The notes beneath the pieces were generated by a model. The model was given only the letters and a program-made list of their open reading frames with translations. It had not been told where the DNA came from and did not search any database. Positions 1-3,444 of a stretch of DNA of 3,444 nucleotides are shown here, piece after piece. The first letter of the stretch is position 1; the number at the start of each line of letters is the position of its first letter. Source of the DNA: a virus (taxonomy: Duplodnaviria; Heunggongvirae; Uroviricota; Caudoviricetes). The stretch lies in the IMG/VR virus record IMGVR_UViG_2695420793_000012; one strand, given 5' to 3'. A program made the translations under genes and the position numbers.

Positions 1-393
1 ATCGTCTGCGCGGAAATGGACGAACAGTGGGGATACGTCGGGGCTAAATCGCGCCAGCGCTGGCTGTTTTACGCGTATGACAGGCTCCGGAAGACGGTTG
101 TTGCGCACGTATTCGGTGAACGCACTATGGCGACGCTGGGGCGTCTTATGAGCCTGCTGTCACCCTTTGACGTGGTGATATGGATGACGGATGGCTGGCC
201 GCTGTATGAATCCCGCCTGAAGGGAAAGCTGCACGTAATCAGCAAGCGATATACGCAGCGAATTGAGCGGCATAACCTGAATCTGAGGCAGCACCTGGCA
301 CGGCTGGGACGGAAGTCGCTGTCGTTTTCAAAATCGGTGGAGCTGCATGACAAAGTCATCGGGCATTATCTGAACATAAAACACTATCAATAA
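1..393 (+). CDS. insB: IS1 transposase InsB, C-terminal part (5'-partial at window edge)
   Basis: Frame 1 open from base 1 ([31 protein letters not shown]...[15 protein letters not shown]), stop TAA 391-393; matches recalled InsB C-terminal sequence. Confidence 0.95.
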
Positions 394-408
394 GTTGGAG
401 TCATTACC
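386..408. repeat. IS1 right terminal inverted repeat (about 23 bp)
   Basis: Reverse complement of 386-408 reads GGTAATGACTCCAACTTATTGAT, the canonical IS1 end. Confidence 0.9.
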
Positions 409-784
409 TATTTTTCTTACCTGATTCGGGTAATGTTGACCATTCACTGACCACATTATTAATGCCGGTATTCCGCCCGCTCTGAATAAAAATCCCACGC
501 TTTACCAGAACACTTTTTGCAGCAGAACACTTGTGCGGCAATATCCCGGTTAATTCGGAAAGTTGCTCGTTGCTAACCCAATCCAGTTTTTTATTAAAGC
601 CATATGTTTTGCGCATGACAGCCAGAAAGACCAGAAGCTGGTGCTGTGTTAATCCGGCCAGCATCACAGCTTCCAGCAACTCATTTGCAATGCGCGTATA
701 ACCATCATCGAGATCTGCCACGCGCGGCTCCTTTTGTGCCGCATCCGGCACTGGAAAATTGAATATCTCAGCAGTGTTTGCCAT
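404..784 (-). pseudogene. Lambda O-like replication initiator, N-terminal DNA-binding domain only (126 aa); C-terminal part removed by IS1, stop codon supplied by the IS1 end
   Basis: ATG at 784-782 with GGAGG 4 nt upstream; MANTAEIFNF...RVADLDDGYTRIANELLEA...LLVFLAVMRKTYGFNKK...SEWSTLPESGKKNR resembles recalled lambda O N-terminus (MTNTAKILNF...NVADLDDGYARL...LRKTYGWNK). Frame runs into the IS1 IR, stop TAA at 406-404. The listed ORF start at 874 would overlap the upstream gene. Confidence 0.8.
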
Positions 785-870
785 AATTCCTCCCGCAATG
801 AGTGTGTTACGATTTGCACCTGAAAGTCGGTTCTGTTCCAGCAGACCGGCTTTCGCCATTTCTGAACCTG

Positions 871-1410
871 TCATATCGCCCCCAGCATGGTAGTAACCAT
901 CGCCATCAATGGACCAGCCAGATCTGGGTCCACACGAAACATCGACACAATACCTTCACTAATTTCCTTCAGTTTCTGGTGGCGTGGTGCGTTGAGAATG
1001 ACAGCCTGTTTTGCCTCACTGAGTTCCTTTTCCATTTCAGCCAACCTAGCCATGAAGCTATCCTGCTCAACCAGGTAACCGCGATATTCCAGCGGTAGTA
1101 CCGCCAGAATTGCCGGGGTCAGTTCACGCACGTTATTTCGGTATTTTTCAGAATCGAATTTGTTATCGAGGAAGCGGAACAGCTTCTGGCGTGCACGGCT
1201 GACATCATCAGGGAAATCGATGGTGCCGCCGCCCTGCTCCCGATACTCATTCACAATGAGTGTGGCAACGACATCCTGATTATCTACAGCCGACCAGGCG
1301 CGGACGGCATCACGGATTTTTTCGTGGCCTGGCACCTGTTTTGTTTGAGAACGATTTATCACCGCAGTCGGGCTAAATCCGCTAGTCTGTTGGTATGTAA
1401 GTGGTTGCAT
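871..1410 (-). CDS. ydaT: YdaT-family protein (proposed functional analog of phage CII; historically annotated as putative toxin), 179 aa
   Basis: Strong RBS AAGGAG 6 nt upstream of ATG (1410-1408). Motifs NEYREQGGG and LTPAILAVLPLEYRGYL match recalled E. coli YdaT (EEYLRQGGG, LIPAILAILPRELRHRL). Sits in the cII position between cro-like and O-like genes. Confidence 0.75.
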   Translation of the reverse strand: MQPLTYQQTSGFSPTAVINRSQTKQVPGHEKIRDAVRAWSAVDNQDVVATLIVNEYREQGGGTIDFPDDVSRARQKLFRFLDNKFDSEKYRNNVRELTPAILAVLPLEYRGYLVEQDSFMARLAEMEKELSEAKQAVILNAPRHQKLKEISEGIVSMFRVDPDLAGPLMAMVTTMLGAI

Positions 1411-1429
1411 AATTGACTCCTTTAGTTTG

Positions 1430-1449
1430 AATTGACTGTTAAGTTGATT
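1430..1449 (+). promoter_or_regulatory. Direct repeats TTGACT-N6-TTGATT (AATTGACT also at 1411-1418); candidate binding site for the CII-like activator / PRE-like establishment promoter reading toward the repressor gene
   Basis: Seen in sequence: ttgactgttaagttgatt; position (cro/cII-analog junction) and direct-repeat-N6 geometry parallel lambda CII sites TTGC-N6-TTGC at PRE. Function is inferred. Confidence 0.25.
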
Positions 1450-1454
1450 GCTTA

Positions 1455-1467
1455 TTGTTAAAGAGCG
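1455..1467 (-). promoter_or_regulatory. boxA-like element (nutR-like position), CGCTCTTTAACAA on minus strand
   Basis: Reverse complement of 1455-1467 is CGCTCTTTAACAA, matching the boxA consensus CGCTCTT(T)A and the rrn boxA core GCTCTTTAACAA; lies 12 nt downstream of the cro-like stop. No convincing boxB hairpin follows. Confidence 0.4.
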
Positions 1468-1479
1468 TGAAATGGAAAT

Positions 1480-1710
1480 TTAAGCTGCGTTCTTTTCGGT
1501 GTGTGGAAACAACTTCGGAAGATCCGGGCGAATCTGGTATGCCTTCACTACTCCACCAGTAGCCGTAACAATGCTGCCGACATGTTCAGGGGATACCTTT
1601 GCTTTGTTGTGAAGCCACTTATAGACGGCCTGCTGTGAAACTTCGCAAGCAGCGCCCAGTTTCTTTTGTGAACCAACGATATTGATCGCTGTTTTGATAG
1701 CTGGGTTCAT
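1480..1710 (-). CDS. ydaS: Cro-like HTH regulator, YdaS family, 76 aa
   Basis: ATG 1710-1708 with GGAGG 5 nt upstream; divergent from the repressor gene; pattern IVGSQKKLGAACEVSQQAVYKW...ATGGVV...IRPDL resembles recalled YdaS (VVGGQSAMARLLGVS...W...ATRGEV...LRPDI). Confidence 0.75.
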   Translation of the reverse strand: MNPAIKTAINIVGSQKKLGAACEVSQQAVYKWLHNKAKVSPEHVGSIVTATGGVVKAYQIRPDLPKLFPHTEKNAA

Positions 1711-1737
1711 AACAACCTCCGTGGTTAATTTGAATCA

Positions 1738-1766
1738 AGATTAAAACTATGGTTGTTTTTAGTCAA
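1738..1766 (-). promoter_or_regulatory. PR-like sigma70 promoter for the cro-like operon (-35 TTGACT at 1766-1761, 17-bp spacer, -10 TAATCT at 1743-1738)
   Basis: Minus strand reads GGTTGTTGACTAAAAACAACCATAGTTTTAATCTTG; -35 overlaps the operator palindrome; near-identical to the module downstream of the repressor gene (2790-2823). Confidence 0.5.
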
Positions 1767-1773
1767 CAACCAT
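1749..1773. promoter_or_regulatory. Operator palindrome ATGGTTGTT-N7-AACAACCAT (OR-like); further half-sites AACAAC(C) at 1711-1717 and GGTTGT at 1798-1803
   Basis: Perfect 9-bp inverted-repeat arms seen directly in sequence, centred between the divergent cro-like and repressor genes and overlapping the PR -35. Confidence 0.55.
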
Positions 1774-1779
1774 TTTCGT

Positions 1780-1808
1780 TTGATGGAATAAAACCTTGGT
1801 TGTACATT
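1780..1808 (+). promoter_or_regulatory. PRM-like promoter candidate for the repressor gene (-35 TTGATG 1780-1785, 17-bp spacer, -10 TACATT 1803-1808), giving a leaderless or near-leaderless transcript
   Basis: Hexamers are weak matches; no usable Shine-Dalgarno before ATG 1815, as for lambda cI from PRM. Confidence 0.3.
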
Positions 1809-1814
1809 TGGACT

Positions 1815-2504
1815 ATGAAAACAACACTCTCAGAAAGACTTAAAGAAGCCAGATTAGCGCGAGGCCTTACACAAAAGGCGCTTGGGGATTTGGTCGGGGT
1901 TAGCCAGGCTGCTATTCAGAAAATCGAAACAGGGAAAGCTAATCAAACAACTAAAATCGTGGAGATCGCGAACGCTTTGGGTGTGCGCGCAGAATGGTTA
2001 TCTTCTGGCGTTGGAAATATGTCAGACAGTACAGTGCAACCAATACAATCAACTGTCAGCCATTCCAAATACTTCAAGATTGACGTTCTTGATATAGAAG
2101 TCAGTGCTGGGCCGGGAGTCATCAACCGTGAGTTTGTAGAAGTTCTACGCTCGGTTGAGTACTCGTTTGACGATGCTCGTCACATGTTCGATGGTAGGAA
2201 GGCGGAAAATATCCGCATCATTAACGTGCGTGGTGACAGCATGTCAGGAACGATCGAACCAGGTGATCTGCTGTTCGTTGATATCACAGTTAAATCTTTC
2301 GACGGTGATGGTATCTATGCGTTTCTGTACGACGACACAGCCCATGTAAAGCGCCTGCAAATGATGAAGGATAAGCTGCTGGTCATCTCTGATAACAAAA
2401 GCTACTCACCGTGGGACCCGATCGAGAAAGACGAGATGAACCGGGTGTTCATCTTCGGTAAGGTTATTGGGAGCATGCCGCAGACATATAGGAAGCATGG
2501 GTAG
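1815..2504 (+). CDS. cI-like phage repressor: N-terminal XRE-type HTH plus C-terminal LexA/S24 autopeptidase domain (229 aa from ATG 1815)
   Basis: HTH LTQKALGDLVGVSQAAIQKIE; putative Ala-Gly cleavage site in DIEVSAGPG; catalytic Ser in VRGDSMSGTIEPGDLLFVD and Lys in AHVKRL. The upstream in-frame ATG at 1749 lies inside the operator palindrome, so 1815 is preferred. Confidence 0.9.
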   Translation: MKTTLSERLKEARLARGLTQKALGDLVGVSQAAIQKIETGKANQTTKIVEIANALGVRAEWLSSGVGNMSDSTVQPIQSTVSHSKYFKIDVLDIEVSAGPGVINREFVEVLRSVEYSFDDARHMFDGRKAENIRIINVRGDSMSGTIEPGDLLFVDITVKSFDGDGIYAFLYDDTAHVKRLQMMKDKLLVISDNKSYSPWDPIEKDEMNRVFIFGKVIGSMPQTYRKHG

Positions 2505-2625
2505 TACCAATTAAAAATTATCAACTGGGCATTGTGCTCATTCAGTAAAGAACTAATTCCTATCTTTGCTCTAGGTAATAATATTAAACCACCGCAATAA
2601 TATCTTTACCTAACGGCGTAAGAAT

Positions 2626-2652
2626 CCCGGTCACCGTGCCGGGTTTTCTTTT
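2626..2652 (+). terminator. Intrinsic terminator downstream of the repressor gene
   Basis: GC stem CCCGG(2626-2630)/CCGGG(2639-2643) with short loop, followed by TTTTCTTTT (2644-2652). Confidence 0.6.
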
Positions 2653-2779
2653 GCCCTCCCCTCATCACACACACCGTTAAAAAAACCACCATAACCTCGC
2701 TTCAGTTATCGCTATGCGATTCAAGTCACAAAATAAATCCATCCTAAATACAACCAGTTATATCTAAAACAACCAATAA

Positions 2780-2823
2780 AACAACTTTTGTTGTTGACGA
2801 TAAAACAACTATAGTTTTAAATA
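2780..2823 (+). promoter_or_regulatory. PL/OL-like promoter-operator module: palindromes AACAAC-TTTT-GTTGTT (2780-2795) and GTTGTT-N8-AACAAC (2790-2809); -35 TTGACG 2794-2799; -10 TTAAAT/TAAATA 2817-2823
   Basis: GTTGTTGACGATAAAACAACTATAGTTTTAAATAAG is near-identical to the PR module on the opposite strand at 1733-1768; downstream of repressor gene and terminator, oriented away from the repressor as lambda PL is. Confidence 0.5.
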
Positions 2824-3254
2824 AGTTCATCGCAACAACACAACGATACGGCAACTACCTGATTCACCGTTGCGATGACCGCTTAGATCCGCAGTTTGAA
2901 TTTCAGCAGGCTTCGGGGAGTGCGAGGGGTGAAACGGACGCGTGAACGTCGGTGTGACCAGCTGAAATTAACTCAACATTTCATACCTTAGTCGCTTCAA
3001 CGAGGCGGCTTAGTTATGACAACCGGCGGCCATCCACCGCCTGAATACGCGCAGAAGTCTCTATATGTTCAGCAGCCCAGCTTACGGGCAGGAGTTTTTA
3101 TGGTTCATCAACATTATGGAACGCAGACCGTTAATCGAGGTGCGGTCATGCCAGGAATGCTGGTCAAACACAAAGATGGTACCTGGACTGCATCAGCTAA
3201 TTTACGCGGACGGCTTTATCTGCATCGCGGCATCGAGCGCACTTATACCCGTGA

Positions 3255-3444
3255 TTTGCTCGTGGAAGTTTTTCTCGACGGACGCGGTACTCCGTTACGA
3301 AGCGAGGCTGGGTATTTCCCGGCCTTTCTGTTATCCGAAAGATGCGCATCGACAGCAAGACATCATGGCTATCAGCTTGTCGTCGTGCAGGAATTGAAGA
3401 TTTCCGTTTCCATGACCTCAGACACACCTGGGCAAGCTGGCTGA
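3255..3444 (+). pseudogene. Tyrosine recombinase (phage integrase) 3' fragment, 5'-truncated and apparently frameshifted; continues past window end
   Basis: Frame 0 from 3255 reads ...[46 protein letters not shown], containing the integrase box II motif HDLRHT. In-frame stops at 3198 and 3252; no room for an N-terminal domain; possible continuation in frame 2 ([12 protein letters not shown], 3278-3313) implies a frameshift near 3305. Confidence 0.7.

Follow-up and report, generated by a model that had tools for sequence, protein, structure and literature searches.

The 3,444 nucleotides of IMG/VR virus record IMGVR_UViG_2695420793_000012 that we analyzed, referred to below as the window, carry two adjacent genes on the minus strand: one encodes a 76-amino-acid helix-turn-helix (HTH) protein of the YdaS family, and the other a 179-amino-acid protein of the YdaT family. 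An earlier note on this DNA had read the two as functional analogs of Cro and CII, and had set aside their annotation as a toxin-antitoxin module. Profile matches, orthology with phi80 cII, phage annotations, the exchange of partners among related loci, the structural match 8bt1 and published experiments on homologs all point the same way, and we conclude with high confidence that the two genes belong to a phi80/lambda-like immunity switch, as its Cro-type and CII-type regulators, and are not a toxin-antitoxin pair. The features that we assigned are as follows.

1-408, plus strand: 3' part of IS1, with the insB' open reading frame at 16-393 and the right end ...GTTGGAGTCATTACC at 408 (PF03400 DDE_Tnp_IS1, 2.9e-74; RefSeq IS1B transposase).
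409-874, minus strand: O', the N-terminal 155 codons of a lambda-O-type replication initiator gene cut by IS1 (PF04492 Phage_rep_O, 2.3e-34; TIGR01610, 7e-24).
871-1410, minus strand: ydaT-family gene, phi80-type cII, 179 amino acids (PF06254; phrog_163; phi80 cII).
1411-1479, minus strand: cro-cII spacer of 69 bp, which holds the promoter proposed by the earlier note at 1430-1449 and varies independently of ydaT.
1480-1710, minus strand: ydaS-family cro-like gene, 76 amino acids, first gene of the rightward operon (PF15943; phrog_35; 3bd1).
1711-1814, no strand assigned: divergent control region of 104 bp (putative OR, candidate PR and PRM), with an operator and repeats common to the PL region.
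1815 (or 1749)-2504, plus strand: cI-type repressor gene, HTH_3 and Peptidase_S24 domains (PF00717, 1.5e-18; PF01381, 6.5e-13; phrog_4, 5e-73).
2626-2653, plus strand: terminator-like hairpin and T run 3' of cI (scan for terminator-like hairpins).
2794-2822, plus strand: candidate PL with operator AAAACAACTATAGTTTTAA at 2802-2820, arranged like PR (hexamers TTGACG-17-TTAAAT, by eye).
3100-3289, plus strand: kil', 63 of the 68 codons of a KilR-type FtsZ inhibitor gene (NF008465, 5.4e-18; comparison with phage PhiR34_1; related phages annotate 'Kil').
3288-3332, no strand assigned: 45-bp filler from elsewhere in the phage left arm (BLAST pieces).
3333-3444, plus strand: integrase 3' fragment, which extends past the window to the tRNA-Arg gene argU (RefSeq pseudogene 'site-specific integrase, missing N-terminus').

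Both genes lie where the earlier note had put them, and searches with profile hidden Markov models confirmed their families. PF15943 (YdaS_toxin) matched the 76-residue protein at E=4.1e-17 (62 bits against a cut-off of 30), and PF06254 (YdaT_toxin) matched the 179-residue protein at E=8.5e-30 (103.5 bits against a cut-off of 21). The strong Shine-Dalgarno sites described for the two genes are likewise present: read directly on the minus strand, that of ydaS is ccacGGAGGttgttATG, with GGAGG 5-6 nt 5' of the ATG, and that of ydaT is ctaAAGGAGtcaattATG, with AAGGAG 5-6 nt 5' of the ATG. Profile matches also bear out the divergent cI-like repressor, with its HTH and S24 domains, and the O-like gene that follows cII and overlaps it (ATGA at 871-874).

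The ydaT-family gene is an ortholog of the cII gene of phage phi80. The phi80 cII product is 66% identical to the 179-residue protein over the full 179/180 residues (E=7e-93), and the best PHROG of the latter is phrog_163, 'CII-like transcriptional activator' (3.9e-67, full profile covered). Relatives are found in 50 phage records, for example those of mEp237, HK225, HK639 and several Klebsiella phages, and are mostly named cII. The gene also occupies the position typical of the YdaT family, second in the rightward operon, after a cro-like gene and before a replication gene; in the phi80 records the order is the Cro-like gene 30, then cII, then the O-like gene 15. Phage_CII gave no Pfam match to the window proteins at E<=0.1, and PF09048 (lambda Cro) is likewise absent from the Pfam matches at that threshold; the two proteins are functional analogs, and not members, of the lambda CII and lambda Cro sequence families.

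That this protein is longer than the 140-residue YdaT of E. coli K-12 (NC_000913) had been noticed before, and the difference had been attributed mainly to the C terminus. The length difference stands, and its placement does not: pairwise and multiple alignments, in which H5 of K-12 YdaT corresponds to H29 in the window, assign approximately 24 extra residues to the N terminus and approximately 15 to the C terminus. Translation truly begins at the ATG at 1410: every homolog examined (approximately 50 genes, from other Enterobacteriaceae) has both the M(Q/H)SL(T/A)YQ start motif and its own ribosome-binding site. Both extensions are kept across a subfamily of 178-183 residues, and judging from these alignments 179 residues is the normal length of phi80 CII proteins.

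In a predicted monomer model of the 179-residue protein, the N-terminal 27 residues are disordered, helices within 28-109 form a POU-like HTH domain with its recognition helix at approximately 69-81 (SRARQKLFRFLDN), and a long helix at 118-137 is followed by two more C-terminal helices. The model thus has the architecture of the YdaT family, an all-alpha POU-like HTH N-terminal domain and then a long helix. When a profile built from 60 homologs was searched against the PDB, it returned just two sequences, both YdaT: 8bt1 (3.5e-8) and 3c4r (3.4e-7). The recognition-helix arginine (R60 in CP-933P, R57 in Rac) is present, with QKLFRFLD aligning with QKIFRWLD of 8bt1, where the tryptophan that follows the arginine is replaced by phenylalanine in the window; this residue, R78, is invariant in the 60 homologs. 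Profile and predicted fold together point to the YdaT of CP-933P (PDB 8bt1), a DNA-binding 'CII functional analog' of known structure.

For the 76-residue protein, we note first that PhiR34_1, a deposited complete Escherichia phage (host K-12 MG1655), annotates the gene as Cro, and that it is the first gene of its operon, divergent from the repressor. It matches phrog_35 at 1.5e-27 and resembles solved Cro proteins (3bd1, E=7e-4; 5w8y), with an additional match to P22_Cro (8e-5, 22.8 bits) that falls below the family cut-off.

We asked how constant this pairing is among relatives of the YdaT-type gene, using 33 non-redundant loci (<90% nucleotide identity) from other genera of Enterobacteriaceae. 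A small HTH gene lies upstream on the same strand in all 33, and its family varies: it matches YdaS in 23 loci, P22_Cro in 5, lambda Cro (PF09048) in 2, HTH_3 in 10, HTH_23 in 7, and further families in 1-4 each (these tallies overlap, as one gene may match several families). Phage_rep_O lies downstream in 20/33 loci, and the divergent gene encodes an HTH repressor in 26/28, with an S24 domain in 17/28. Within E. coli, approximately 700 genomes match ydaT alone (window 871-1411) in addition to those that match the ydaS-ydaT pair. These genomes, like phage 4A7, carry a 97%-identical ydaT whose start codon is the point of junction with an unrelated 30-bp spacer and a different cro and cI, so that the recombination boundary falls exactly between cro and ydaT. 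Partners of a type II toxin-antitoxin system are expected to be inherited together as a cognate two-gene unit, and in the loci compared they are not. Because the upstream partners belong to different families and recombination occurs at the ydaT start, these data argue against a cognate toxin-antitoxin pair; free exchange of partners is what is expected of lambdoid switch modules.

Two further observations concern the two genes in relatives. In E. coli M7638 (locus L004, 3071-3293), the 4A7-type cro beside an intact ydaT is frameshifted, and it is the only disrupted switch gene among the loci that we inspected. Additionally, two database proteins of approximately 240 residues (P0002 and P0006) combine the YdaS and YdaT domains of Pfam in a single chain; rather than real fusions, they probably stem from read-through or misassembly over the short spacer.

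The window comes from a prophage remnant. The chromosome of E. coli strain 165 and 18 further complete genomes contain a segment 100% identical to it over all 3,444 bases. In strain 165 (locus L001, NZ_CP020509 3557390-3584833) the flanks are ompT/envY/nfrA on one side and tRNA-Arg and fimZ on the other, a location that we take, from the K-12 gene order, to be the argU/DLP12 attachment site. A query spanning the junction of IS1 and O' (window 385-435) was found in 19/5,426 complete E. coli genomes, and because these 19 carriers are all identical over the whole window, we conclude that the remnant is a recent clonal event. The immunity region (409-3289) is far more widespread, occurring in approximately 1,460-1,500 complete E. 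coli genomes. We discarded the reading that some 1,460 genomes carry the remnant, as full prophages colinear over 409-3289 also pass the 80% coverage threshold.

The intact counterpart is PhiR34_1, whose homology starts at 409, directly after the right end of IS1, and which is 99.93% identical to 409-3289, differing at 2/2,881 positions. Its annotation lists cI, Cro, cII, O, P and Ren. Deposited complete phage genomes with a cI/Cro/cII/O annotation contain the identical regulator genes. Besides Ren, it has an SMR (emrE-like) gene and ybcK/L/M/N-like genes, which are genes retained in K-12 DLP12, and it looks like an intact DLP12-type phage. DLP12 of K-12 presumably lacks the immunity part, which the strain 165 remnant keeps.

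The earlier note had observed that both regulators look intact while the replication and integration genes beside them are destroyed. The destruction is evident: O retains 155 of the 339 codons that it has in PhiR34_1 (RefSeq pseudogene 'replication protein, missing C-terminus'), only a 3' fragment of the integrase gene is left, and kil breaks off after 63 of its 68 codons, its reading frame running on through 51 out-of-frame codons of downstream debris to a stop at 3442-3444. The regulators are conserved and undisrupted in all close copies (ydaT, 86/86; ydaS, 70/70; cI, 68/68). The contrast is uninformative about selection in the remnant, because the remnant is recent and its 19 genomes are identical, and we therefore discarded intactness there as a sign of selection. 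Pairwise ratios of nonsynonymous to synonymous polymorphism (pN/pS) in close copies are 0.11 for ydaT, 0.11 for ydaS and 0.015 for cI. The IS1/O' junction is absent from all 80 IMG/VR copies in this set, and the purifying selection that the ratios record therefore acted outside the remnant, most likely in working prophages.

These observations bear on whether the pair is simply an inert leftover in an IS1-cut remnant, intact only since the deletion is recent, which we consider possible but on balance doubtful. The small number of carriers and their complete identity leave no time for decay, and O, int and kil are truncated. Such a reading concerns the present use of the genes in the remnant and not their identity, and in that respect it is compatible with a Cro/CII function. 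At the same time, cI, the operators, cro and cII lie at most 2 substitutions (over 409-3289) from a complete phage, and we therefore expect continued expression of the circuit and immunity through cI; without cI, cro, cII and a nearly full-length kil would be released from repression. The switch module of the remnant can no longer drive a lytic cycle, because O is cut and P, Q, the lysis genes and the structural genes are absent. Its remaining activities are plausibly cI immunity and the repression of cro, cII and kil'. We note that kil' lies downstream of the candidate PL/OL, so that what cI loss might release, along with cro and cII, is a possibly active division inhibitor.

Returning to the two genes as Cro-type and CII-type regulators, we examined the DNA through which such a switch would operate. 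A 19-bp sequence, AAAACAAC(C/T)ATAGTTTTAA, has two sites in the window, at 1741-1759 and 2802-2820, where 0.01 would be expected, and both copies are flanked alike, between TTGAC-type and AT-rich hexamers. The cro-proximal copy (AAAACAACCATAGTTTTAA, 1741-1759, minus strand) lies between a candidate PR -35 (TTGACT, 1766-1761) and -10 (TAATCT, 1743-1738). Related repeats, common to the PL region, are found near it at 1786-1803 and 1749-1773, and more operator-like repeats lie at 2744-2796, in a second operator cluster (approximately 2744-2822) that also holds the candidate PL. The PR and PL hexamers were picked by eye. From this arrangement we infer that the 19-bp repeats are the OR and OL operators of the S24 repressor and that the hexamers are PR and PL. 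When folded, the PL leader (2822-2960) showed no sign of structure (z=-0.21).

The start of cI differs between sources: RefSeq gives 229 residues from ATG 1815, and the phage record gives 251 from ATG 1749. No Shine-Dalgarno sequence precedes ATG 1815, which lies 7 nt after a TACATT hexamer, and ATG 1749 is inside the operator region. The context of ATG 1815 would fit a leaderless PRM transcript, as for lambda cI and CP-933P paaR2.

The switch that we envisage would work as follows. The S24 cI repressor would bind the repeated operators at OR and OL and shut PR and PL. On firing of PR, the first product, the 76-residue YdaS-family HTH protein, would act as Cro and repress cI maintenance transcription. 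The second, the 179-residue phi80 CII ortholog, would form a tetramer, each subunit with a POU-like HTH domain and an oligomerizing long helix, and would bind a (T/A)TGAT-N-ATCA-type site close to where its own gene begins; from there it would activate leftward transcription, antisense to cro and toward cI, and so favor the establishment of repression. The proposed DNA-binding and activation steps follow experiments on the CP-933P and Rac homologs, which are approximately 25-35% identical to the window protein over the aligned N-terminal region. These homologs bind (T/A)TGATT-N6-AATCAA as a tetramer and activate a reverse promoter toward the repressor gene (PMC8630535, PMC9986795, PMC11879457).

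As a possible target of the YdaT-like protein, the earlier note had suggested a promoter at 1430-1449, in the cro-cII spacer. This proposal fares poorly: a scan for sigma-70 promoters did not call it, and the spacer is replaced wholesale in relatives with the same ydaT. The AATTGACT direct repeats in the spacer are not conserved either, and we rejected the proposal. A different site emerged from the 34 non-redundant genes of the subfamily, together with a possible promoter element.

1345-1362, minus strand: candidate YdaT box within cII codons 17-22 (+49 to +66), GTGATAAATCGTTCTCAA, proposed from its recurrence in homologs.
1383-1388, plus strand: speculative -10 (TAGTCT) of a leftward PRE-like promoter, as T-A-n-n-n-T is nearly invariant in homologs.

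Across the subfamily the candidate box follows the pattern nTGAT(A/T)-N6-nnTCA(A/G). A box-like site stands at this offset in 31/34 homologs, where the background per offset is 0.14, and nowhere else in a span of 1,060 nt do such matches recur. Box matches with <=2 mismatches number 6, against 1.1 ± 1.0 in shuffles, and 4/6 are at the candidate offset. The box is kept although the peptide changes (MINRAQ, LIFENQ with TTGATTTTTGAAAATCAG, LISQNQ, LIKLNQ, VISNYQ, MIYQNR): codon 21 ends in T in all 34 genes, whether it encodes Ala, Ser, Asn, Phe, Asp or Tyr, and at codon 18 the rare ATA makes up 88% of Ile codons. Three positions of the T-A-n-n-n-T motif (the reverse complement of +23 to +28) are kept in at least 85% of the 34 homologs while the encoded residues vary. 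The box centre lies 29.5 bp from this motif, a spacing equivalent to approximately -41.5 if leftward transcription starts near window 1395; the consensus scan called no promoter at 1383-1388, and the geometry given here is our own reconstruction. We caution that the homologs are related, that conserved peptide motifs partly dictate the DNA, and that characterized homologs use other geometries too. Conservation at third codon positions, which is 0.73 at the 5' end of ydaT against a gene mean of 0.585, is equally high at codons 140-151, and we accordingly treat it as suggestive only and not as proof of a box. We offer solely as a hypothesis drawn from these comparisons that 1345-1362 is a better candidate CII target than 1430-1449.

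A second stretch at this end of the gene deserves mention. Codons 2-8 of ydaT (1387-1407, minus strand) are nearly invariant in nucleotides across genera (consensus ATGCAnTCACTTaCnTntCAaCA), the rare codons TCA and CTT included, and their reverse complement contains two (T/G)TGAT(A/T)-like units 11 bp apart. The invariance could reflect a further YdaT site, the first stretch of a leftward transcript, a constraint on translation initiation, or a recombination linker at the mosaic boundary.

Taking the box and the -10 together, we tentatively suggest, as an idea less likely to be right than wrong, that the conserved 24-residue N-terminal extension, part of the 27 residues predicted to be disordered, which span both elements, is there for its DNA signals and not for a protein function. 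A YdaT box and a -10 would there form a class-II-type (-41.5) CII-dependent leftward promoter inside cII, and regulator and target would move together when cro and cI are swapped.

Several points weigh against the interpretation as a whole or against its parts. Foldseek found no significant match in the PDB for the full-length model of the 179-residue protein, and the window YdaS is weakly similar to phi80 gp30 (E=0.003). The published YdaT box, TTGATT-N6-AATCAA (consensus taken from PMC9986795 and PMC11879457), has no good match in the window: sites with <=3 mismatches number 5 where 2.6 are expected, the best of them (1721-1738, 2 mismatches) is within chance expectation, and the candidate box at 1345-1362 has 4 mismatches. 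The sigma-70 consensus scan called none of the candidate PR, PL, PRM and PRE hexamers. In the literature we found no experiment on the 179-residue protein or on the binding site of its subfamily. Finally, Rac YdaS and YdaT are toxic when over-expressed, and the harm of de-repression is real even if they are not toxin-antitoxin toxins (PMC5700377, PMC11879457).

The YdaT-type protein might instead be mainly a repressor, or a regulator of host genes as Rac YdaT is at rcsA, and not a CII-like activator of repressor synthesis. Rac YdaT occupies the intergenic region between racR and ydaS, across the ydaS promoter, and switches on the host gene rcsA (PMC11879457); CP-933P YdaT has been termed a 'repressor', and its main site is downstream of PRE933P (PMC9986795); and in the window the 1721-1738 match lies directly downstream of the candidate PR -10. 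We nevertheless judge this unlikely. In vivo, both characterized homologs activate transcription that runs leftward, in the direction of the repressor gene (PMC8630535, PMC11879457), the subfamily is annotated as cII in phage records, that of phi80 among them, and the match at 1721-1738 is no better than chance would give.

A type II toxin-antitoxin (or toxin-toxin) module, in which the partner or the neighboring repressor neutralizes the toxin and stabilizes the locus, is suggested by the Pfam names 'Bacterial toxin YdaS' and 'Bacterial toxin ydaT', by the RefSeq product 'toxin YdaT domain-containing protein', and by the lethality of racR silencing or of ectopic Rac ydaS/ydaT expression (PMC5700377, PMC5700373, PMC11879457), yet it is very improbable given the variable partners and the reassortment at the ydaT start codon described above, the fact that YdaS and YdaT both appear from profile and predicted fold to be HTH DNA binders, and the lack of any PADLOC defense-system match for YdaS, YdaT or Kil (cI gave generic HTH matches only). 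Toxin-antitoxin tests were negative and CP-933P YdaT was non-toxic according to PMC8630535, which cites Christensen-Dalsgaard 2010, and over-produced lambda CII is likewise toxic (PMC5917428). The toxicity of Rac YdaT depends on its DNA-binding function and on effects on the host regulon, and is lost in the recognition-helix mutant H56A/R57A (PMC11879457).

Among known systems, phi80 is the closest to the switch described here. Its CII has the same N- and C-terminal extensions, its gene order is the same (cI, OR, small HTH gene, cII, O-like gene), and ATGATAAACCGCGCTCAA is embedded at the same cII codons, 17-22. It differs from the window in its cro partner and in its repressor specificity, and the 85-nt spacer between its cII and gene 15 encodes the M3 (oop-like) RNA, whereas in the window cII and O overlap.

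In lambda, Cro and CII occupy the same circuit positions, and the activator target apparently lies inside the 5' end of its own gene in both systems: the lambda TTGC-N6-TTGC is within cII codons 3-8, and the window candidate is within codons 17-22. Lambda CII recognizes a direct repeat, whereas the characterized YdaT proteins recognize an inverted repeat (PMC9986795).

The YdaT of CP-933P (E. coli O157:H7) has 141 residues, is approximately 25-30% identical to the window protein, and has neither the 24-residue extension at the N terminus nor the two additional C-terminal helices. In place of the S24 cI of the window, it is paired with the repressor PaaR2, accompanied by a ParE toxin-antitoxin system, and its strong operator is at the end of ydaS. 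Jurenas 2021 reported that CP-933P YdaS and YdaT act as Cro and CII analogs and that YdaT activates a promoter between ydaS and ydaT (PMC8630535), and Prolic-Kalinsek 2023 solved the structure of this YdaT and mapped the TTGATT-N6-AATCAA site (PMC9986795). In Rac (K-12), whose proteins belong to the same two families, YdaT (140 residues) is 35% identical to the window protein over 96 residues and YdaS (98 residues) is 30% identical over 63; RacR has no S24 domain, and the downstream replication genes are ydaU/ydaV and not O/P. Wons 2025 showed the YdaT box of Rac to switch on a reverse promoter that reads toward racR (PMC11879457). This box, defined by experiment, overlaps the start codon of ydaT and ends shortly before the HEH codons (PMC11879457). 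The window candidate lies 19 nt before the aligned HEK codons, so that the two positions are roughly homologous.

Two other features of the neighborhood are recorded here. The position 3' of cI, which is rexAB-like, holds a SIR2-family protein gene (L004, from 4209 onward), genes for a HipA-family kinase and DUF3037 (L005, 4224-5541), or DUF7946 (L006, 4168-5031) in relatives, and there it looks like a variable slot for defense or moron genes; in the window it holds only the terminator and OL. Additionally, one of only two sigma-70-like sites called by the scan (759-787, plus strand, TTGAAT-17-CATAAT with a TG) points antisense through the O start to the 3' end of ydaT, and recalls lambda oop and the phi80 M3 RNA. 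No terminator was found downstream of this site and it has no Rfam match; scanned in full against Rfam at E<=1, the window gave nothing, with no oop-like, KilS-like or put-like RNA.

The Cro/CII reading of such genes has already been published, the case having been made from genomic context by Casjens 2003 and Jobling 2018 (PMC5917428), and beyond the candidate cis site there is no new biology here. If that site and its promoter are real, they would locate the establishment promoter of the large phi80-type subfamily and possibly explain why its members have an N-terminal extension. The value of this analysis is mainly as an annotation check, as the 'toxin' labels of RefSeq and Pfam can mislead surveys of toxin-antitoxin and defense systems. 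The window is a clean example, in which genomic context, orthology with phi80 cII and mosaic reassortment all indicate switch regulators.

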